From positions 1 to 14,057 of the forward strand of contig JBBKWS010000055.1 in NCBI GenBank assembly GCA_037969075.1: DNA of 14,057 nucleotides, given 5' to 3'. Of the stretch, positions 2,173-12,131 are shown in pieces; position 1 is the stretch's first letter; every line of letters begins with the position of its first letter. The notes below the pieces were generated by a model. That model was not told the DNA's origin, searched no databases, and saw nothing but the letters and a program-made list of their open reading frames with translations. This DNA comes from Bdellovibrionales bacterium (lineage in GTDB: Bacteria; Bdellovibrionota; Bdellovibrionia; Bdellovibrionales; UBA840). The position numbers and the translations under genes were made by a program.

Positions 2173-4455
2173 ATGAAAGCATGGCATGATTTCTTAAAAA
2201 ATGTAAAGCAGATACCCCGTCAGGCATATTTTGGCGTAGCCGGTTTATTACTAGCTATAGTAGTTATATTTAGTTTTTATTCTATCTATAAACTGCAAGA
2301 AACAATGCAAACCTCATTGCAAAATAAGCAACTAATTACTCCCATAGAATTTTACTCTGCCCCAGACACTATCTTTACATTTCAACGTATCAACAACGCC
2401 GATTTACTAGATACCATCAAAAAAGTTCTGCCTGATGATCAGTATGGAACACGTGATACTACTTCTTGTAAGCAACAATCAGGAATTCAAGGCGATATTT
2501 CTTTTTGTATTTATATTAATCTGACAGATGAGGCCGAGAATCCCGGTAGATATTTGATAGGCGCTACAGCCACTGATGTCGCTTGGATCTATTCATTAGA
2601 AGAAAAACGTCCTAAATACAACATAGAGCTCTTGCCACATCTGTTTGCGCAGTATTATGGAAATCGCCCCATATTAAAAACACCAGTACAACTCGGCGAC
2701 ACACCCGCTCTTTGTTTAAATTCTTTATTAGCCATAGAAGATAATGAGTTCTTAGAGCATAGCGGCTTTAGCGTAAAATCCATCTTTCGTGCCCTCATTA
2801 AAAATGTCATCGAAGGAAGGAAAGCTCAGGGCGGCAGTACGATCACACAACAGTTGGTAAAAAATTATTTTCTAACCCATGAGAAGACCTATATTAGAAA
2901 ATTAAAAGAACTTATTATGGCAGTTCTGTTAGAAACACAATTTTCTAAAGACCAAATCCTAGAAGCCTACATTAATGAAATTTATATGGGCCAAAACGGA
3001 ACTTTTGAAATTCGTGGTTTTGGTTCTGCCAGCGAATTCTATTTTCGCAAAAAATTACAAGAACTCAATCTATCTGAATGCGCATTGCTAGCTGCTATTA
3101 TTAATAGCCCCGGTAGATATGATCCATTTACAAAACCTGATAATGCTACAACCAGAAGACAATTGGTCTTAGAAAAACTTAGAGATAACAACATCATTAG
3201 TAGTGATGATTTTAGCGCTGCCAACCAAGCAGAACTACCCTCTTTTTCTGAGCAAAAATTAGAAAGCCCTGCTCCATATTTTATGGAAGCTGTGATGGAG
3301 CAAATAGATAGCCTAGGTATCAAGAAAGAGCAGGGACTTCGCATCTATACTACTTTAAATTTAAGAGCGCAAAAAGCGGCCGAAGATGCTGTAAAGTATG
3401 GATTAGATCGTATTCGCACTGTTTACAAAGATCGTCTTCCTAAGGGTGATAAACCTTTACAGGCAGTCTTAATTTCAGCAGATCCTGTAACAGGTTATGT
3501 ACAATCATTAATTGGTGGAGCTAGTTATAAATATTATCCATACAATAGAGCTTTAAAAGCTCACAGACAAATTGGCTCTACAATGAAAGCCTTTGTATTT
3601 TTATCAGCCCTAGAAAGTTTTACGGAAGAAGGAAATCCTTTTACTCCATTAACCGTAATTCATGACGAAAGATTTACCACAAACTATGACAACACTAGCT
3701 GGAGCCCTAAGAATTTTGAAAATAAATATTTCGGTGATGTTCCAATGTTTTTTGCTCTCAAAAACTCATTAAATTGCGCTACCTCAAAACTAGCAATAGA
3801 TACGGGTTTAGAGTCTATTGTGACCGTAGCAAGAAGCTTCGGCATTACTTCACCTATGCAACCGGTGCCAGCGCTTAGCTTAGGAGCTTTCGAATTATAT
3901 CCATGGGAACTTTTGCAAGCTTACTTAACCATAGCCAGGATGGGCTCCTACATTCCAATCACGTACATCAGGTATGTTACAGATCTGGATGATGACACCT
4001 TGTTTGAACAAATACCTAGAGTCGAACAAGTTTTTAGTAAATCAAAAGTAGCAGTACTAATTGGCATGATGAAACAAACTGTTGAAAATGGTACAGGAAA
4101 ACTCGCCAGACTACTTGGATTCAAATCTCCTGCTGCCGGTAAGACGGGAACAACTTCTGATTCTAGAGACTCATGGTTTGCTGGCTTTACTCCTAATCAC
4201 GTAGCGATTACCTGGGTGGGCTATGATGATAACACTACCCATAATTTAACAGGCGCAAGTGGCGCCCTACCAATTTGGGCTCAATATATGAAAACCTATG
4301 GCCAGCAGTTTCCTGATACTGATTTTAATTGGCCTGATGAGGTTTACCCGTTAGATCTCAGTGAATCACAATTAGAAGACTTAGGCATCAGTGCTGAAGA
4401 AACTGCAAAAATGGGTGATATCCAAATAATTTTAGAAAAGAATCAGTCTGAATAA
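2173..4455 (+). CDS. mrcB: Class A penicillin-binding protein, bifunctional transglycosylase/transpeptidase (PBP1B-like)
   Basis: N-terminal TM anchor; GT51 motifs AIEDxxFxxHxG, GGSTITQQLVKN, RKLKE; transpeptidase motifs SxxK (STMK), SxN (SLN) and KTGT. The 1B versus 1A assignment is less certain. Confidence 0.9.
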   Translation: MKAWHDFLKNVKQIPRQAYFGVAGLLLAIVVIFSFYSIYKLQETMQTSLQNKQLITPIEFYSAPDTIFTFQRINNADLLDTIKKVLPDDQYGTRDTTSCKQQSGIQGDISFCIYINLTDEAENPGRYLIGATATDVAWIYSLEEKRPKYNIELLPHLFAQYYGNRPILKTPVQLGDTPALCLNSLLAIEDNEFLEHSGFSVKSIFRALIKNVIEGRKAQGGSTITQQLVKNYFLTHEKTYIRKLKELIMAVLLETQFSKDQILEAYINEIYMGQNGTFEIRGFGSASEFYFRKKLQELNLSECALLAAIINSPGRYDPFTKPDNATTRRQLVLEKLRDNNIISSDDFSAANQAELPSFSEQKLESPAPYFMEAVMEQIDSLGIKKEQGLRIYTTLNLRAQKAAEDAVKYGLDRIRTVYKDRLPKGDKPLQAVLISADPVTGYVQSLIGGASYKYYPYNRALKAHRQIGSTMKAFVFLSALESFTEEGNPFTPLTVIHDERFTTNYDNTSWSPKNFENKYFGDVPMFFALKNSLNCATSKLAIDTGLESIVTVARSFGITSPMQPVPALSLGAFELYPWELLQAYLTIARMGSYIPITYIRYVTDLDDDTLFEQIPRVEQVFSKSKVAVLIGMMKQTVENGTGKLARLLGFKSPAAGKTGTTSDSRDSWFAGFTPNHVAITWVGYDDNTTHNLTGASGALPIWAQYMKTYGQQFPDTDFNWPDEVYPLDLSESQLEDLGISAEETAKMGDIQIILEKNQSE

Positions 4456-4461
4456 CTAAGT

Positions 4462-4480
4462 TGGCACCCCCTTTGCTCTA
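4462..4480 (+). promoter_or_regulatory. Sigma54 (RpoN) -24/-12 promoter
   Basis: TGGCAC-N5-TTGCT with GG at 4463-4464 and GC at 4475-4476 (exact GG-N10-GC spacing). Predicted +1 near 4488, upstream of the SD and ATG 4512. Confidence 0.85.
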
Positions 4481-4511
4481 TATGAGCTTGATACTCAAAA
4501 AAGGGGACAAA

Positions 4512-4649
4512 ATGAAATCACTTCAGATACTGAGCATTTTAGTTTTAGCAGTTGTAGCCATTACACTTAGCGCATCAGAAACACTAGATAAAAGCAAAAT
4601 TGAGAAAGATAAGTCTAGAGGTTGTGTAATCTGTTCTGAGGAGCAGTAG
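4512..4649 (+). CDS. Small secreted or membrane-anchored peptide with C-terminal CxxC (45 aa)
   Basis: SD AAGGGG 4501-4506, ATG 4512; MKSLQILSILVLAVVAITLSA-SETLDKSKIEKDKSRGCVICSEEQ. The ORF-track start at 4461 overlaps the sigma54 promoter and is rejected. Confidence 0.72.
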   Translation: MKSLQILSILVLAVVAITLSASETLDKSKIEKDKSRGCVICSEEQ

Positions 4650-4653
4650 GAAT

Positions 4654-4672
4654 TGTAAAAACATCTTTTACA
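4654..4672. promoter_or_regulatory. Inverted repeat TGTAAAA-N5-TTTTACA (operator/enhancer or RNA hairpin)
   Basis: Perfect 7-bp arms, extendable with a bulge to AGGA..TCCT, immediately after the peptide stop codon. Confidence 0.4.
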
Positions 4673-4709
4673 TCCTCAACTAAAAAATGAAATTTTTGTT
4701 ATTATATCG

Positions 4710-4755
4710 AAATTATGGGTGGCTTTTTGACCCTAATTTTTTTCAATGTTATCTC
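4710..4755 (+). promoter_or_regulatory. Imperfect hairpin with T-tract overlapping a possible sigma70 promoter for the kinase
   Basis: AAATTATGGGT/ACCCTAATTT arms with T7 at 4737-4743. Also TTGACC (4727-4732), 17-nt spacer, TATCTC (4750-4755) preceded by an extended -10 TG. Confidence 0.35.
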
Positions 4756-4802
4756 CTAAGTGGTGCCAAATGAAACTCATTTGGACTTTCGGGGGAAATT
4801 TT

Positions 4803-6629
4803 TTGGCTAAATTTCGTAAACGCGACTACTTTTATCAAATCCTAAAGGTATCATTAGGTTTAGTAATTGCTTTTATTTTATGCCAATTTCCACTCTATTA
4901 TCTTGAGTTTTTTGGCTATGATCTTATGCAGAGGCTCCGCCCCGCCACCCAGACCACCAATGCGATAGCTATAGTTGCCATTGATAGCCGAACCCTTGGA
5001 CAATTAAATCGTGCCCCTGATCTACTAGAGCATACCGAGGCCTTACGAAATATTTATTTAGAAAGACCTCGAGCTGTCGTTTATTTAGAAGATCCAAGCA
5101 CCTTAAAAGGAAGTTTTTCAACACGAAAAGACTTTGCTCGTATTGCCACTTCTTTTCCTTTTTTCTCTGTGTCCATACCCGACCTTGAAGTTGATGGTAA
5201 CACCGAAAAATTTCAACTTCCTTATCCGTTAGATATCCTACCTACACACCAAGGTATTTTAAGTGAAGACAAAGTTAACTTTGGCGGTGATGGGGTATCA
5301 AGGCGAGGAATTATTTCTTATGAAGGAAAATGGTTCATACATCCTTTAGCTGCTCAAACTGTTACCGGCCCGATGCGTCCTCAAGACTACAAGGGCACAT
5401 TTGACTTCAAAGGCTCTAAGCAAGTTTTAGTTAATATGCATCAAAAAAACTCTTTTCCTAAAGTGAGTTTTTTTGATGTTATGCAAGGTCGCTTTGCCTT
5501 TGGTGAGTTCACCAACAAGATCGTACTAATTGGTAGGGCTTCGGATTACGACTCGCCTGATTTTGTAAGAAGTGTATACTCAAGAGATATAACGGCCCTA
5601 CCTACCGTTGAATACCATGCAAATATCATCGATACCTTGATTGCTAACAACGGCATTACGCAAGCTCCTAGTTGGTGGAATTTACTAATGACAATTCTTG
5701 TTTCTTTAATGGCAGTTTTTTTTACTTTTAAACTTAGCCCACTTAAAGGGCTTGTTTTTATAATGTCCACTGCCGCAGTCTACTCAGCCTTAACTTTCGG
5801 GGCTTTTTGGATGTTTGATTTTTGGATGAATTTAGCTCACCCACTCCTTGCTGTTTTTATCACTTATTACTTTTTTATTCCTTATCGACTTATTAGTGAG
5901 AGTAAGAAATCTTGGGAGTACCAACAAAAAAACGTATTACTAACTCAAGTAGAAGAACTTAAAAATAATTTTATCAGCATGATGTCACATGACCTAAAAA
6001 CTCCTATAGCAAGAATCCAAGGAATGGCTGAGATGGCCTTGCATAGTCTACAGCAAGAAAACGATAAGCCAAAACATGCTTTAGAGAGCATCTGCAGCTC
6101 TACGGAAGAATTAACTTTATTTATAAACTCTATTTTAAATTTAAGTCGCGTTGAGAGTAAGGGCGTAAAATTACATTTAGAGAGTAGAGATATTAATGCC
6201 CTGATCAAAGAAGTAGTGGCTAAAAACCAATTTCAGGCCGAGAAAAGGGGTATTCAAATACTCTTCGAACCTGAACCTTTGTTTTCAATCAAAGTGGATG
6301 TGGATCTAATGAGACAAGTGATTCACAACGTAGTTGAAAACGCTGTCAAATACAGTTCTGACAACTCTAAAGTATTGATCACAACCGAAGAAGTGAATGG
6401 TGAAATTCTTTTACAAATTTCTGATCAGGGTATGGGAATTTCTACAGACGACATAGATAAAATTTTTTACAAATTTTATCGTTCAAAAAATGCCAAGTCT
6501 TCACCCATTAGAGGGAGCGGCCTTGGATTATATTTATCCGACTATTTTGTAAAATTGCACAATGGTAAAATTCAAGTTGAAAGCGTGCCAGATCAAGGCT
6601 CTACTTTCACAGTTAGTTTGCCGTTTTAG
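4803..6629 (+). CDS. CHASE2-domain sensor histidine kinase
   Basis: N-terminal TM; CHASE2-like periplasmic region (IAIVAID, DGVSRR, FTNKIVLIG, VEYHANIIDTL); three TMs; HisKA SHDLKTP; HATPase ENAVKYS, DQGMGI, GSGLGL, GSTF. TTG 4803 is preferred as start (GGGGG SD 7 nt upstream); alternatives are ATG 4746 and 4770. Confidence 0.9.
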   Translation: MAKFRKRDYFYQILKVSLGLVIAFILCQFPLYYLEFFGYDLMQRLRPATQTTNAIAIVAIDSRTLGQLNRAPDLLEHTEALRNIYLERPRAVVYLEDPSTLKGSFSTRKDFARIATSFPFFSVSIPDLEVDGNTEKFQLPYPLDILPTHQGILSEDKVNFGGDGVSRRGIISYEGKWFIHPLAAQTVTGPMRPQDYKGTFDFKGSKQVLVNMHQKNSFPKVSFFDVMQGRFAFGEFTNKIVLIGRASDYDSPDFVRSVYSRDITALPTVEYHANIIDTLIANNGITQAPSWWNLLMTILVSLMAVFFTFKLSPLKGLVFIMSTAAVYSALTFGAFWMFDFWMNLAHPLLAVFITYYFFIPYRLISESKKSWEYQQKNVLLTQVEELKNNFISMMSHDLKTPIARIQGMAEMALHSLQQENDKPKHALESICSSTEELTLFINSILNLSRVESKGVKLHLESRDINALIKEVVAKNQFQAEKRGIQILFEPEPLFSIKVDVDLMRQVIHNVVENAVKYSSDNSKVLITTEEVNGEILLQISDQGMGISTDDIDKIFYKFYRSKNAKSSPIRGSGLGLYLSDYFVKLHNGKIQVESVPDQGSTFTVSLPF

Positions 6630-6643
6630 TTTTGGGGGGATTT

Positions 6644-8080
6644 ATGTTGAAGTTATTAGTGGTAGATGATGATGCGGGCTTACGATTAAGCTTAGCCTCT
6701 AGTTTACATCAAACAGGAAGGTTTCAGGTTGAAGAAGCTGTGGATGGCGTCGACGCTGTCGAAAAAGTTACGACAGCGGATTCGAATTTTAATGTAGTGG
6801 TTTTAGACGTAGATATGCCAAGAATGAATGGCCTAGAAGCTCTGCAAAAATTAAAAGAACATGATCCTAGCCTTGTGATCATTATTCTTACGGCTCATGC
6901 CAATATTGAAGATGCTGTACGAGCAGTAAAAGAAGGTGCGTATGATTACATCTCAAAGCCTGTTCAGACAGTAGCTTTGATTGAAATGATCGATCGTGCC
7001 CTTCATGCGCATCAAATGATTAGTAATTTAATCTTTTCTGCACCGACCCTAATGGACGGATCGTCTAGATTTATTGGTAAAACGGTTGAAATGCAAAAAG
7101 TCTTTCACTTGATTCACCGACTTTCAAAAGTAGATACTCCAGTGATGATTCGAGGAGCTTCAGGTACCGGTAAAGAATTAGTTGCTAGAGCTATTCATAT
7201 GAACTCGGTTAGAAAAAATGAAAAGTTTGTGGCGATTAACTGCTCTGCCATTCCTGAAAATTTATTTGAATCTGAACTTTTTGGCCATGAAAAAGGTGCA
7301 TTTACTAGCGCTGACGCCAGAAAAATTGGTAAACTGCAATACGCTGAAGGCGGAACTCTATTTTTAGATGAATTGGGCGATCTACCTGTATTGATGCAAG
7401 TTAAACTACTACGAGTACTGCAGGAGAAAAAGTTTACTCCTGTTGGATCGAACCGTGAACAAGGAATGAATGTAAGAATCATTGCTGCTACTAACAGACC
7501 ACTAGAGCAAATGATACAAGAACAACGCTTTAGAGAAGATCTATTTTATAGATTGAATGTGATCCCTATATATCTTCCAGAACTAAAAGACAGAAAAAAT
7601 GATATCGATCTTTTAACCAATCATTTTTTAACTAAGTTCAATCAACAGCACAACCGAAAGGTGACTGGTTTGAGCCCTGAAGCCATGGCCATATTAAAAA
7701 AATATGACTGGCCAGGAAACATCAGAGAGCTAGAGAATGTAATTGAACATTGTTTTATTATGGAAACTGGCCATAGAATTAATATTCAATCACTTCCTGA
7801 AAAACTACTTTCAGCGCTTGGCATTCGCAGTAACACTGTCACTGTTGAGAATGTTGATGGACAAGAGGAGTCGGTTACATCTAACGTTGGCATTTTAATT
7901 ACAGATGACAAGCTAGACTTCAATAAACACAAAGAAATGTTTGAAAAGGAATTTATCATTAAGGCATTAAAGACGTTTGGCGGAAGAATCAATCAAACAG
8001 CTTTGCATGCAAATATTCCTAAGAAGACGCTTCTTAGAAAGATTGAAAAGTATGGTTTGATACCAAGAGATTATAAATAA
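6644..8080 (+). CDS. Sigma54-dependent response regulator (REC-AAA+-HTH, NtrC/AtoC family)
   Basis: Receiver VVDDD...LDVDMP; Walker A GASGTGKE; ESELFGHEKGAFTSA; Walker B LFLDE; RFREDLFYRLNV; WPGNIRELEN; C-terminal Fis-type HTH. ATG 6644 follows a G-rich SD. Confidence 0.95.
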   Translation: MLKLLVVDDDAGLRLSLASSLHQTGRFQVEEAVDGVDAVEKVTTADSNFNVVVLDVDMPRMNGLEALQKLKEHDPSLVIIILTAHANIEDAVRAVKEGAYDYISKPVQTVALIEMIDRALHAHQMISNLIFSAPTLMDGSSRFIGKTVEMQKVFHLIHRLSKVDTPVMIRGASGTGKELVARAIHMNSVRKNEKFVAINCSAIPENLFESELFGHEKGAFTSADARKIGKLQYAEGGTLFLDELGDLPVLMQVKLLRVLQEKKFTPVGSNREQGMNVRIIAATNRPLEQMIQEQRFREDLFYRLNVIPIYLPELKDRKNDIDLLTNHFLTKFNQQHNRKVTGLSPEAMAILKKYDWPGNIRELENVIEHCFIMETGHRINIQSLPEKLLSALGIRSNTVTVENVDGQEESVTSNVGILITDDKLDFNKHKEMFEKEFIIKALKTFGGRINQTALHANIPKKTLLRKIEKYGLIPRDYK

Positions 8081-8082
8081 AA

Positions 8083-8472
8083 CTACTTAACTATTAGGTA
8101 CTCTAACCAAGTCTTAATAACTGGTAATACTGCAATGAAACTAGCAATGCTCAGTATGGCTGCCACTAAATATATGGTTGTTTTAAAAGGGATTGCTTCC
8201 AGCTTTCTATCTTGTGCATCAAGCTTTCTATCTTGCGCATCGATCCTCTTATCTTGAGCACTGAGGTGCTTCTCATGCATCTCAAATTTTTGATCCTGTA
8301 GATCAAACCGCTTATCTATCGCTTTAAAATTAGCATCAAGCTTGTCGCTTAATTCTTTCATTGCGATTCTAAACTCATGCTTAAAAGTAGTCACTATCTT
8401 CACCTGCATCTCTGCTTGTCTACGACTAAACCCTGCCTCTTCAAATGCTCTAATATCTTCTATTGTATACAT
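8083..8472 (-). CDS. DUF1640/CCDC90-like membrane-anchored coiled-coil protein (129 aa)
   Basis: Head motif FEEAGFSRRQAE, heptad stalk (IDKRFDL QDQKFEM HEKHLSA QDKRIDA QDRKLDA QDRKLEA), C-terminal TM. GGAG SD 9 nt before ATG 8472. The longer start at 8559 lies upstream of the sigma54 promoter. Confidence 0.75.
   Translation of the reverse strand: MYTIEDIRAFEEAGFSRRQAEMQVKIVTTFKHEFRIAMKELSDKLDANFKAIDKRFDLQDQKFEMHEKHLSAQDKRIDAQDRKLDAQDRKLEAIPFKTTIYLVAAILSIASFIAVLPVIKTWLEYLIVK
8201..8263 (-). repeat. 21-bp tandem repeat (about 3 copies) encoding coiled-coil heptads
   Basis: + strand units agctttctatcttgtgcatca / agctttctatcttgcgcatcg (19/21 identical) / atcctcttatcttgagcactg. Confidence 0.85.
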
Positions 8473-8514
8473 CGTGAAAAACTCCAATCTGCTATAGTAA
8501 AAATATATATTTCC

Positions 8515-8533
8515 TAGAGCAAAGAAAATGCCA
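8515..8533 (-). promoter_or_regulatory. Sigma54 (RpoN) -24/-12 promoter
   Basis: Minus strand reads TGGCATTTTCTTTGCTCTA, with exact GG-N10-GC spacing. Predicted +1 near 8507, upstream of the SD and ATG 8472. Confidence 0.8.
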
Positions 8534-8660
8534 TAACCAGAGATAATTATATTAGACATTCAGTAATCTAAATTCGACCGACCGGACAACACGTTCGGAA
8601 GTATTTTTTAAATATCAGATCTAAACCAGCTGGCTATTTAAAAAGCAAATATCCCATTTC

Positions 8661-8681
8661 GCTTAAGCACCTAGCTTAAGC
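8661..8681. repeat. Two copies of palindrome GCTTAAGC separated by 5 bp
   Basis: GCTTAAGC (8661-8668) ACCTA GCTTAAGC (8674-8681) in a divergent intergenic region. Confidence 0.5.
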
Positions 8682-8748
8682 TTAGATTTTAGGCAAAAAC
8701 CACAATTTCTTTGATAAATAGTGCGAAGTCTATGACTCTCACCCACCT

Positions 8749-9288
8749 ATGAGGGGAATGCCGCCACAAGCCTATTCGAAACAAGACATTTTGAAGGCGA
8801 TGGAATGGTTAGAAAAACAATCTGAACCAGTAAAATCGCAAGCCACAAATGCCGACGCCTTAATGGGACTTTATAAAAAAGCACTCATTTACGGAGATAC
8901 GTTTGTCGACAAGCAGGCCCCTGTAAGCGGTGACTCATTTAGGTCAGAATTAAGAGACATTGCCGAAAGATTAGGGTCATTTGATGCAAGCCCCACTGTA
9001 AGCACGCAAACGAAGAAAGTCTCACAGGTTTCCCCCTTGAGTTACCAAGTCGAAGCAGAAGAACCGCGTCAACAAGCACATGATGTGGTCCAAAAAGAAA
9101 ATATTAAAATTTCTATCCAGCGGCAGCTACAGCAAACCACTAAAGAAGAAGGTTTTAATATCCAAGCTCTAGATTCTTTAACCCAATCTAGGGTTAAAGA
9201 AATTCGCACTAGATTTAATCTCTCTCGCGATGAAGAAGCCATACGTATGCTAGTCACAGTGGGCTATGAAAAATTACAAAATATTTAA
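8749..9288 (+). CDS. Hypothetical protein (179 aa), helical N-domain, polar linker, possible C-terminal RHH-like domain
   Basis: Long ORF filling the gap with natural composition; no recognised family. Start is uncertain (8749 or 8758). Confidence 0.75.
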   Translation: MRGMPPQAYSKQDILKAMEWLEKQSEPVKSQATNADALMGLYKKALIYGDTFVDKQAPVSGDSFRSELRDIAERLGSFDASPTVSTQTKKVSQVSPLSYQVEAEEPRQQAHDVVQKENIKISIQRQLQQTTKEEGFNIQALDSLTQSRVKEIRTRFNLSRDEEAIRMLVTVGYEKLQNI

Positions 9289-9324
9289 AAAAGATCAGAC
9301 ACATAGGCACAAGTTCTATCAGCC

Positions 9325-9353
9325 TTGACCCTCTATAAAAAGGCAGTTAATTT
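9325..9353 (+). promoter_or_regulatory. Sigma70-type promoter of the ileS operon
   Basis: TTGACC (9325-9330), 17-nt spacer, TAATTT (9348-9353); AGGAG SD at 9383-9387. Confidence 0.6.
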
Positions 9354-9392
9354 AAGCGATAAGTTCGTAAATATGCCGCCTTAGGAGTCAGT

Positions 9393-12131
9393 GTGTCGAG
9401 CCAAGTTCCAAACTATAAAGAAAGCCTGCTTTTACCTCAAACAACCTTTCCTATGAAGGGTGATCTTCCTATCAATGAGCCCAATGCGATCAAAAAATGG
9501 ACCGATAAAAATGTATATGAAAAAATGCTATCTGGTAAGGCTAAAACTTTCTGTTTTCAAGATGGCCCTCCCTATGCCAACGGCAATATTCATGTAGGGC
9601 ATGCGCTAAATAAAATTTTAAAAGATATCGTTGTTAAATTTAAAAATATGAATGGTGAGTCCACAGTATTTATACCAGGTTGGGATTGCCACGGTCTTCC
9701 TATCGAATTAGGGGTTTCAAAAGATTTAGGAGAAAAGAGAAAGCAAATCACCGATAAAGACTTTAGAAATCTTTGTCGTGAATACGCTATGAAGTGGATC
9801 CATAAACAAAGAGAGCAATTTATTCGTTTAGGCATCCTTGCAGATTGGGAAAATCCCTACATGACTTTGCAAGCCGAATACGAAGCCGAGGAAGTAAGAC
9901 AACTGGCACTACTTGCCGACAGTGGTAACTTTTATCGTGGAGATAAACCTGTGTATTGGTGCTGGCCTCTACAAACTGCCCTTGCTGATACAGAAGTAGA
10001 ATACCACGAACATAAATCCCCAGCGGTTTATGTAAAGTTTAAGATGGATCCTTCGTTTTACAAAAATGGATCTGTGTCTGCCGTTATCTGGACGACAACT
10101 CCTTGGACCTTACCAGCAAACCTTGCCATTGCTGTACATCCTGATTTTGAGTATTCGATTTATAAGTCTAGCGGCGAACTGCTTTTACTTGCAGACGGCC
10201 TGATCGAACAAATGACTGCTACTACGCAATTACAATTTGAAAAAGTAAGCGGCACTACCGTAAAAGGATCTACTTTAGAGGGTGTATCGACTACTCACCC
10301 ATTTATTGATAGAGAATCCAAGTTTGTATTAGGAGATCATGTTACTTTAGAAGGTGGTACTGGCTTAGTACACACAGCACCAGGGCATGGGCCGGACGAC
10401 TATATCATTGGTTTAAAATACGGCTTAGCAACTTACAGTCCAGTTGATGAAATGGGTAAGTTTACTGCTGAAGTACCTGAATACAAAGGCATCAATGTGT
10501 TTGAAGCCAACCCACTGATTGTTGAACGCTTAAAAAATGATGGCAGTTTACTATTTCATTACACTCTTACACACTCTTATCCACATTGTTGGCGCACAAA
10601 AAAACCTCTTATCTACCGTGCTACCAGCCAGTGGTTTTTGCGTATGGATAACCCAGAAAAATCTATTCGTGAGAAAACTTTAAAAGCCATCAAAGAAGTA
10701 AAATGGATTCCTAATTGGGGTGAAAATCGCATCAATGCAATGATTGAAAACAGACCAGATTGGTGTCTATCCAGACAACGTCTATGGGGTGTACCAATCC
10801 CCGTGTTCACCTGCAACTCTTGTGGTGAACATCTTGTGTCTTCAAGTGCGATGAACCGAGTGGCTGACGCAATGGAAGCAGGCGACGGCATCAATGAATA
10901 CTTTGAAAGTCCGGCAGAACGATTTACTACGGGTGAGGCTTGTGCAAAATGCAAGGGCACATCCTTTGAAAAATCAAAAGACATTTTAGATGTTTGGTTT
11001 GACAGTGGGACATCACATTCGGCAGTACAACGAAAACGCAAGGGTATGAAAGCCACAGCTGACCTATACTTAGAGGGAAGCGATCAACACAGAGGTTGGT
11101 TTCAGACTAGCTTACTTACCTCAATTGCTGCACATGGTGTAGCTCCTTATAAAACAGTCTTAACTCATGGCTTTGTAAATGATTTACAAGGTAGAAAGAT
11201 GAGCAAGAGCTTGGGCAACGTTGTAGATCCTCTTGATATTATTAAACGCTACGGGGCAGAAATTTTACGCCTGTGGGTTTCTTCAGGTGATTACAGTCAA
11301 GATTTAGCTTGCGGTGAAGAGCAGTTCAAAAGAATGTCTGAGGCCTATAGACGAATCAGAAATACGATGCGGTTTTTATTAGGAAACCTCTTTGATTATG
11401 ATCACAAAAAAGATGCCGTAGCATTTAAAGACATGCTTGAATTAGATCAATGGGCACTTTTACGATTAAACCAATTGATTACCGATGTAAACGCACATTA
11501 TGAAGCATATGAATTTTATAAAATCTATCACGCCATCAATAATTTTATTACTGTAGATTTATCAGCATTGTATTTGGATGTTCTAAAAGATCGCCTCTAT
11601 GTTGATAAAAAAGATGGTCTATCTCGCAGAAGTGCACAAACCGTTGTGTTTGAACTTACTGATCACCTTTGCAAAATGCTAGCACCTATCTTGTCATTTT
11701 TGAGTGATGAGGTTTATACACATTTGCAACCAGAGGTAGAATCCATATTCTCATTGCCATTTCCGAAGCCAAATAAAGATTGGAAAAAAGATGGTATCTT
11801 AGAAAAATTTGAATTGTTAAATGAACTACGCTCAAAAGTATCTAAAGATTTAGAGGATTTACGCAGAAACAAAACGATTGGCGCGAGCTTAGAAGCCAAA
11901 ATAAATATTAAAACAAAGGGTAAGACTTTAGAATATCTAAATGCTTACAAAACGGAGCTTCCTACCTATTTTATAGTTTCACAAGTTGAATTTAGTGAAG
12001 GGGATGAGAAGATTGTAGCAGAAAAAGCAGATGGTGAAAAATGTGTTCGTTGCTGGCGCTACGACAAAATTATTGGCGCCAATAAAAAATTACCAGGACT
12101 ATGTCCGCGCTGTACGGAGGCGTTAACATGA
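9393..12131 (+). CDS. ileS: Isoleucine--tRNA ligase (bacterial type 1)
   Basis: DGPPYANGNIHVGH, PGWDCHGLPIE, WTTTPWT, GTGLVH, EGSDQHRGWF, KMSKS, C-terminal zinc finger CVRCW...CPRC; GTG start with SD. Confidence 0.98.
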   Translation: MSSQVPNYKESLLLPQTTFPMKGDLPINEPNAIKKWTDKNVYEKMLSGKAKTFCFQDGPPYANGNIHVGHALNKILKDIVVKFKNMNGESTVFIPGWDCHGLPIELGVSKDLGEKRKQITDKDFRNLCREYAMKWIHKQREQFIRLGILADWENPYMTLQAEYEAEEVRQLALLADSGNFYRGDKPVYWCWPLQTALADTEVEYHEHKSPAVYVKFKMDPSFYKNGSVSAVIWTTTPWTLPANLAIAVHPDFEYSIYKSSGELLLLADGLIEQMTATTQLQFEKVSGTTVKGSTLEGVSTTHPFIDRESKFVLGDHVTLEGGTGLVHTAPGHGPDDYIIGLKYGLATYSPVDEMGKFTAEVPEYKGINVFEANPLIVERLKNDGSLLFHYTLTHSYPHCWRTKKPLIYRATSQWFLRMDNPEKSIREKTLKAIKEVKWIPNWGENRINAMIENRPDWCLSRQRLWGVPIPVFTCNSCGEHLVSSSAMNRVADAMEAGDGINEYFESPAERFTTGEACAKCKGTSFEKSKDILDVWFDSGTSHSAVQRKRKGMKATADLYLEGSDQHRGWFQTSLLTSIAAHGVAPYKTVLTHGFVNDLQGRKMSKSLGNVVDPLDIIKRYGAEILRLWVSSGDYSQDLACGEEQFKRMSEAYRRIRNTMRFLLGNLFDYDHKKDAVAFKDMLELDQWALLRLNQLITDVNAHYEAYEFYKIYHAINNFITVDLSALYLDVLKDRLYVDKKDGLSRRSAQTVVFELTDHLCKMLAPILSFLSDEVYTHLQPEVESIFSLPFPKPNKDWKKDGILEKFELLNELRSKVSKDLEDLRRNKTIGASLEAKINIKTKGKTLEYLNAYKTELPTYFIVSQVEFSEGDEKIVAEKADGEKCVRCWRYDKIIGANKKLPGLCPRCTEALT

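Follow-up and report, generated by a model that had tools for sequence, protein, structure and literature searches.

Several operons of the NtrC family, NtrBC and ZraSR with ZraP among them, are autoregulated through sigma-54. In Bdellovibrio bacteriovorus HD100, the genes Bd3358-Bd3360 (a gene in the radical-SAM position, a CHASE2 kinase and a ‘zraR’ activator) are up together 2.0-3.0 fold at prey entry and, in the gene lists of the same study, stand among those induced in predation but not during host-independent growth (PMC2797640). Here we analyse a 14,057-nucleotide (nt) stretch of DNA (the window), which is the entire contig C55 of a Bdellovibrionales genome (G000; 2.50 Mb, 90% complete), and which holds a CHASE2 kinase and a sigma-54 activator flanked by two small genes, each behind a sigma-54 motif. 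A sequence-only reading had joined these four genes into one signalling module. With middling confidence, we instead read them as two separate entities: a maturase-free operon of a peptide, the CHASE2 kinase and the activator, whose peptide would be exported by Sec, closed by a disulfide and take the place of the enzyme-modified peptide of related bacteria, and an unrelated cassette. The features of the operon are:

4462..4477, plus strand: left sigma-54 -24/-12 motif, 7 nt past the stop of the PBP1B gene
4512..4649, plus strand: open reading frame (ORF) of 45 amino acids (aa), with a hydrophobic N-terminus (3-21), a Lys-rich middle and GCVIC near the C-terminus
4718..4734, plus strand: putative dyad operator of the kinase operon, GTGTCA-N3-TGACAC type, not noted in the sequence-only reading
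4746..6629, plus strand: CHASE2 histidine kinase, probable orthologue of Bd3359; its start may be TTG 4803
6644..8080, plus strand: REC-AAA+-HTH sigma-54 activator, probable orthologue of Bd3360, with loop 1 reading GAFTSA

Both central proteins were assigned correctly from the start: the kinase (CHASE2-HisKA-HATPase) and the activator (REC-AAA+-HTH_8) score above the Pfam cut-offs, and the pair is conserved across the order. The nearest named relatives of the activator are Bdellovibrionales, at 59-66% identity, and its loop 1 is GAFTSA in both G000 and G001, a genome of the same genus, with the F and T kept. The B. bacteriovorus clusters of the two proteins include HD100 CAE78162 and CAE78163, names that match the rows for Bd3359 and Bd3360 in the supplementary data of PMC2797640; the orthology to these numbers is thus a probable one, drawn from names and gene order. 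The position of the Shine-Dalgarno (SD) sequence in G002, which represents a second genus of the family f1, and in G003 suggests the TTG at 4803 as a possible kinase start.

The kinase-activator pair of the window and that of HD100 are orthologous with PBP1B upstream in both, and the most telling comparison is what lies between. Among 60 related loci (kinase identity at least 37%), a radical-SAM gene (Pfam Radical_SAM) precedes the pair in 37, and 36 of these 37 have a one-cysteine peptide of the type Lys-leader...C-x-P, often GC[IV]P, just ahead of the kinase. Of 36 loci with the radical-SAM gene, 28 have a sigma-54 motif ahead of it (none on the reverse strand); of the 23 enzyme-less loci, 15, the window included, have one no more than 400 nt from the kinase (one on the reverse strand). 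The window belongs to the enzyme-less group: tblastn returned no match for the radical-SAM gene in the 90% complete G000, and the gene was found in none of the seven genomes of the family f1 (G000 and six others), as against 19 of 61 overall. At the same position as the C-x-P peptide, the window has a peptide with a hydrophobic, signal-peptide-like leader and CVIC, and not the KHIKK-type leader and C-x-P core. The window presents the sigma-54 motif, the dyad, the Cys peptide, the CHASE2 kinase and the activator in one orientation. Short ORFs, Lys-rich or, in L034, hydrophobic, also occur just ahead of the kinase in the enzyme-less loci L042, L043, L045, L049 and L034, and are possibly remnants or other peptide types; in a few enzyme-less loci, such short Lys-rich ORFs are Cys-free.

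The 45-aa ORF itself behaves as a gene. The differences between its G000 and G001 versions fall as 14/2/23 over the three codon positions, a coding signature, and the peptide together with its sigma-54 motif is kept in two other genomes of the family, making two genera in all: the 19-mer at 4462 is identical in G001, and G002 has at the same position a 34-aa counterpart that has CVIC and a hydrophobic N-terminus and lies behind a matching sigma-54 motif of its own. CVIC is invariant in all three copies (G000, G001 and G002). The ORF has no Pfam family, and homologue searches with it returned nothing beyond itself and the copy in G001. Small residues at about 19-21, read by eye and not with a predictor, fit a signal-peptidase site, and we regard the product as a candidate exported disulfide peptide. 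The sequence-only reading had called both small proteins envelope-targeted, which fits loosely: the hydrophobic segment is N-terminal in the 45-aa ORF and C-terminal (100-118) in the 129-aa ORF on the right. Its tie of the left small gene to the kinase and activator is plausible, given the coding signature, the retention with the motif in two further genomes and the shared radical-SAM/peptide position.

A second line of evidence comes from the dyad at 4718-4734. Sites of the form GTGTCA-N3-TGACAC with at most two mismatches occur within 400 nt of the kinase in 16 of 60 loci, against 1.2 in shuffles, and with a matrix from whose training the window's genus was left out, 39 of 58 loci have sites, compared with 1-2 in shuffles. 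With this matrix, the window site scores 18.0 bits, tied second of 112 genome matches of at least 11 bits. When 48 sigma-54 promoters of G000 are compared over -200/+300, the strongest operator match is that of the 4462 promoter (the same 18.0 bits, the next promoter having 12.0), whereas the promoter at 8533 on the right scores 2.1 bits; thus, it is the left side, and not the right, that is tied to the operon. No terminator was found between the peptide and kinase genes, and a sigma-70 scan gave fewer matches than shuffles. A 14.6-bit operator match at 4503-4519 was discounted as part of the SD/ATG context, and a search for a wider operator regulon gave no enrichment over controls in 10 genomes.

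From these features we infer export, disulfide formation, binding, transcription and activator specificity along the following lines. The phosphorylated activator would bind the dyad at 4718-4734 and open the 4462 promoter by looping; Sec would export the peptide, which would then be cut near residue 21 and have its CxxC oxidised; and the periplasmic CHASE2 domain would sense the peptide, closing a feedback loop. The layout is like that of NtrBC and ZraSR-ZraP in that a kinase-activator pair goes with the sigma-54 promoter of a small envelope protein, but the operator sequence and the peptide of the window are unrelated to those systems, and autoregulation here is a proposal. Literature searches, with subscription papers largely outside their reach, returned no description of the operon's signal or of the operator; the text of PMC3627812, as far as it was available, gives a FliA motif only. 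A complex prediction for the peptide with the kinase sensor dimer (score 0.00, with controls that did not fold) speaks neither for nor against binding.

Several observations weigh against this operon. No such peptide was found in G003-G006 or near the kinase in 20 of the 23 enzyme-less loci, and the kinase therefore needs no linked peptide. The likeness between GCVIC and GC[IV]P amounts to three residues and the leaders are wholly different, so that homology of the peptides is not shown. In G002, a second sigma-54 motif lies directly ahead of the kinase, and the peptide promoter is therefore separate there. The operator is 256 nt downstream of the left motif, whereas in relatives it is 25-142 nt upstream; in G003, the operator is present but a strong sigma-54 motif is not; and similar dyads stand ahead of another activator. 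None of 26 Bacteriovoracaceae-type loci yielded the operator, even though the recognition helix hardly varies among 93 activator orthologues. This absence, the dyads ahead of the other activator and the downstream position of the operator in the window all count against autoregulation. Finally, 92 of 93 activator orthologues read G[AS]FTGA in loop 1, with GAFTSA seen in G000 and G001 alone.

Some of these observations feed the alternative that the left small gene is a passenger like the right one: a further gene for a small secreted protein, with a sigma-54 promoter of its own, that landed after PBP1B in two genera, the kinase and activator running from a separate promoter controlled at 4718-4734. 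The enzyme-less loci without the peptide and the G002 kinase with its own motif agree with this, as do the variation in gene content between PBP1B and the kinase from genome to genome and the many secreted-protein genes that follow sigma-54 sites among the 66 intergenic ones of G000. Against it, the peptide lies where 36 of the 37 radical-SAM loci have their Cys peptide and has a similar layout, Lys-rich and then G-C-[VI], and it is the sole CVIC-type small ORF found in G000. We consider this alternative somewhat unlikely, though to be taken seriously.

The size of the peptide recalls a different precedent. MgrB, a 47-aa protein, has an N-terminal hydrophobic stretch that resembles a signal sequence and is uncleaved (PMC2789325, as far as its text was consulted), and the 45-aa product might likewise stay in the inner membrane and inhibit the kinase as MgrB inhibits PhoQ. 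The two systems are alike in a product of about 45-47 aa with the same layout and in its being a candidate kinase modulator, but the window has a sigma-54 system, a CHASE2 sensor and a gene adjoining the kinase, where the comparison is with PhoQ/PhoP. Moreover, the positional counterparts in relatives are without a membrane segment and sit with a maturase, the small residues at about 19-21 fit cleavage, and no sequence likeness to MgrB was found. An inhibitor of this kind is improbable.

The right-hand side of the locus has a different character, and its features are:

8081..8621, minus strand: presence/absence cassette of 541 bp (upstream element, sigma-54 motif and ORF), not a conserved part of the operon
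8083..8472, minus strand: 129-aa DUF1640/CCDC90-like protein, with a short head, a long helix and a C-terminal membrane anchor
8518..8533, minus strand: right sigma-54 -24/-12 motif, predicted promoter of the 129-aa ORF
8574..8600, minus strand: degenerate TCCGA...TCGGAC element, a candidate enhancer common to paralogue promoters

What had linked this gene to the left one was the likeness of the two sigma-54 motifs. Both are indeed at the sites claimed for them (TGGCACCCCCTTTGC at 4462 on the plus strand and TGGCATTTTCTTTGC at 8533 on the minus strand) and at the claimed distances from the starts (35 nt to ATG 4512 and 46 nt to ATG 8472); in both, the GG and GC are 10 nt apart (TGGCA-N6-TTGC[AT]), the canonical spacing. 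They are the only exact matches to TGGCA-N4-CTTTGC in the window, which has 4 matches with one mismatch against 0.33 expected. G000 has a match for the DNA-binding domain of RpoN, 8 activator-type proteins and 37 TGGCA-N6-TTGC sites; TGGCA-N6-TTGCT occurs 24 times, against 5-19 at nine other spacings, and 66 of 220 sigma-54 sites scoring at least 13.5 are intergenic. Both motifs are therefore best described as predicted sigma-54 promoters, which likely belong to different systems. Their identity at 15 of 19 positions, put forward as special, turns out to be ordinary: 48 of the 325 pairs (14.8%) among 26 intergenic TGGCA-N6-TTGC sites reach at least 15/19, and closer partners exist elsewhere in G000 for both (three at 17/19 for the 4462 site and three at 16/19 for the 8533 site). 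In a second cassette allele from the same sample, base 8517 in the shared extension is changed, with TGGCA and TTGC kept. Thus, the match indicates sigma-54 and not co-regulation. One count favours the sequence-only reading, namely that the exact 15-position common pattern occurs just at these 2 places in the genome, the pattern having been picked post hoc.

The 129-aa protein is one of a dispersed family. An iterated profile search finds 17 copies in G000, one a fragment, as single genes amid unrelated neighbours; the same profile has 10 matches in G001 and none in G002-G005. In a 50-row tree, the window copy groups with rows of G000 and G001 only, in an 11-row clade (support 99/96). A sigma-54 motif is found at 10 of the 14 copies with scorable upstream sequence, against 35 of 1955 other genes; counted from 8533, the window motif is 61 nt ahead of the ATG, and the paralogues mostly have 61-64 nt. 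In the best cases, the TCCGA...TCGGAC element of the paralogue promoters is a dyad of 25 bp whose end lies 38 nt ahead of the motif, and 8 of 9 family promoters have a TCCG half-site, compared with 9 of 53 other promoters. The half-site at 8594-8599 is identical in the diverged cassette allele. A point to be set against these figures is that paralogue promoters share ancestry, so that the enrichment counts are not independent. A longer reading of the ORF (158 aa from ATG 8559) was rejected, the paralogues beginning at the equivalent of 8472.

The cassette is also polymorphic. In contigs of runs X1 and X2, from one sample, 8081-8621 is replaced by 52 other letters, with the joint running from 8080 to 8622. 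G001 lacks the cassette at this position and has a terminator-like hairpin in its place; conversely, a G001 copy sits at a site that is empty in G000. None of 100 related loci (105 minus 3 duplicates and 2 loci without the kinase) gave a match for the cassette, and an inward-facing sigma-54 site after the activator was met in only 1 of 89. With 17 dispersed copies behind their own promoters, and with its absence from G001, from a co-occurring haplotype and from all of the 100 loci, the right-hand gene falls out of the proposed module: the motif is common genome-wide and the flanking gene is unlinked in relatives. We are highly confident that it is not a conserved member of the kinase-activator operon, the firmest of our conclusions, and it carries the caution that matching sigma-54 motifs are common in these genomes. 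At 541 bp, the cassette leaves no room for a transposase, and two filled/empty alignments gave no clear target duplication, the flanks being too diverged. GC content gives no foreign mark (0.36 in the cassette versus 0.378). The tight stop-to-stop spacing was rejected as a sign of targeted insertion, as 48% of 269 convergent pairs in G000 lie within -20 to +10 nt. A diverged haplotype is seen in the contigs of the one sample over about 6460-9400 but not across 4200-4763, with the cassette in three forms (absent and two alleles), a pattern that suggests recombination across the activator gene.

On the preferred reading, the cassette promoter would answer to a binder of the TCCGA element common to the paralogues, likely a different activator. 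In the module as first proposed, the local activator would drive both inward promoters, the TCCGA element would be its site and the cassette would be kept here for that purpose. This draws on the facts that both motifs look functional, that the element is still without an assigned binder and that the genome has just the 8 activator-type proteins. It is countered by the distribution of the TCCGA dyad, which is enriched in G000 alone (9 versus 1 in the control), with no enrichment across 60 relatives that mostly have the same activator; by the absence of the dyad, and of the TCCG half-site, at the 4462 promoter; and by the polymorphism of the cassette. Even with the activator driving the whole 17-copy family, the adjacency would be incidental. 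We hold the module to be very unlikely. As an order-wide signal, the TCCGA element was unsupported (17 half-sites versus 10.5 expected in 20 loci, like controls). The two G000 sigma-54 promoters at C24:5963(-) and C169:215(-) are 17/19 identical to the 4462 site and precede related 37-aa basic ORFs; that at C169:215(-) has the TCCGA dyad, and a fragment of the CCDC90-like family adjoins it back-to-back. At C42:4427(+) in G000, several TCCG/CGGA half-sites lie upstream of the sigma-54 motif of an 84-aa gene that is not a family member.

Another dyad, TCTCA-N3-TGAGA, was tried as the site of the local activator and rejected, being abundant in genomes of the family f2 that have no orthologue; it has no good match near either window promoter. 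In its own right, it shows strong enrichment: G000 has 20 perfect sites, where other spacings give 0-3, and across the order (60 relatives) a single genome holds as many as 61, where controls give 0-9. Several sites lie 33-118 nt upstream of the sigma-54 motifs of secreted-protein genes. A variant with at most two mismatches stands ahead of a REC-less activator (C145:1382-2407 in G000) in 12 of 30 loci, and this activator has an orthologue in all 53 near-complete genomes. The dyad marks a candidate order-wide master regulon.

Proteins of the DUF1640/CCDC90-like type are typically trimers. The best PDB match of our family profile is 6H9M, the head of human CCDC90B (E 0.0032), and one relative bears the source name DUF1640. 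Against PF07798, which has matches in 52 of 301 genomes of the order, the window copy scores 19.6 bits, under the gathering score of 33.5, and the paralogue C94 scores 35.7 bits, above the cut-off. The window copy has the layout of a head, a coiled-coil stalk and a C-terminal membrane anchor. An [aliphatic]-A-T-K beta-layer neck is described as a feature of the family in PMC4786415, as far as that text was seen; the window copy reads FRIAMK there, without A-T-K, and at least 90% of the 16 aligned copies retain the T. A monomer model of the 129-aa protein had no match at E at most 0.001 in a PDB fold search, and NCBIfam has no family for the window copy. Judged by anatomy, the most likely role is that of an inner-membrane-anchored coiled-coil scaffold of variable length. 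The likeness to DUF1640/CCDC90 proteins (PF07798; PMC4786415, in the part consulted) thus covers the head motif, the variable-length stalk and the C-terminal anchor, whereas the window genome differs in its 17 dispersed single-gene copies, most behind sigma-54 motifs. No description of such a sigma-54-linked dispersed expansion was found in the literature, under the same limits of search. A separate PF07798-like expansion of 5-12 matches, some clustered and without sigma-54 motifs, is seen in G185, G205 and G229 of the genus g75. In other genera (loci L168-L197), the start of many DUF1640-like genes is preceded at 29-59 nt by TTGC[AT] with a poor -24 element, and some of these genes have TCTCA-type dyads.

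The gene order of the window is groES, PBP1B, the 45-aa ORF, kinase, activator, the 129-aa ORF (minus strand), a 179-aa ORF, ileS, lspA and lgt, the last three being presumptive identities from their sequence type. The GroES (1467-2033) has a long Lys/Ala-rich histone-like N-terminal extension, as in G002 and G003. The 179-aa ORF (8749-9288) has no Pfam family and is a conserved presence between the activator and ileS across the order.

Two leads emerge for the biology of these bacteria. On the right, there is a genus-level expansion of CCDC90/MCUR1-like membrane proteins moving as promoter-plus-gene units. On the left, the maturase-free operon makes the idea of the peptide as a signal testable with a synthetic disulfide peptide of 19-24 residues, and its operator is a concrete target for an electrophoretic mobility shift assay. 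A bolder proposal, which we advance tentatively and consider unlikely as it stands, is that a predatory lineage swapped the radical-SAM thioether peptide for a Sec-exported CxxC disulfide mimic acting on the same CHASE2 kinase. The orthologous kinase-activator pair of Bdellovibrio-type predators is switched on at prey entry (in the data consulted from PMC2797640), and bears on how that step is sensed. If true, the swap would name a ligand for a CHASE2 domain, would point to Cys-to-(+3) as the crosslink position in the Bdellovibrio peptide, and would offer a chemically simple probe of the Bd3359/Bd3360 switch.

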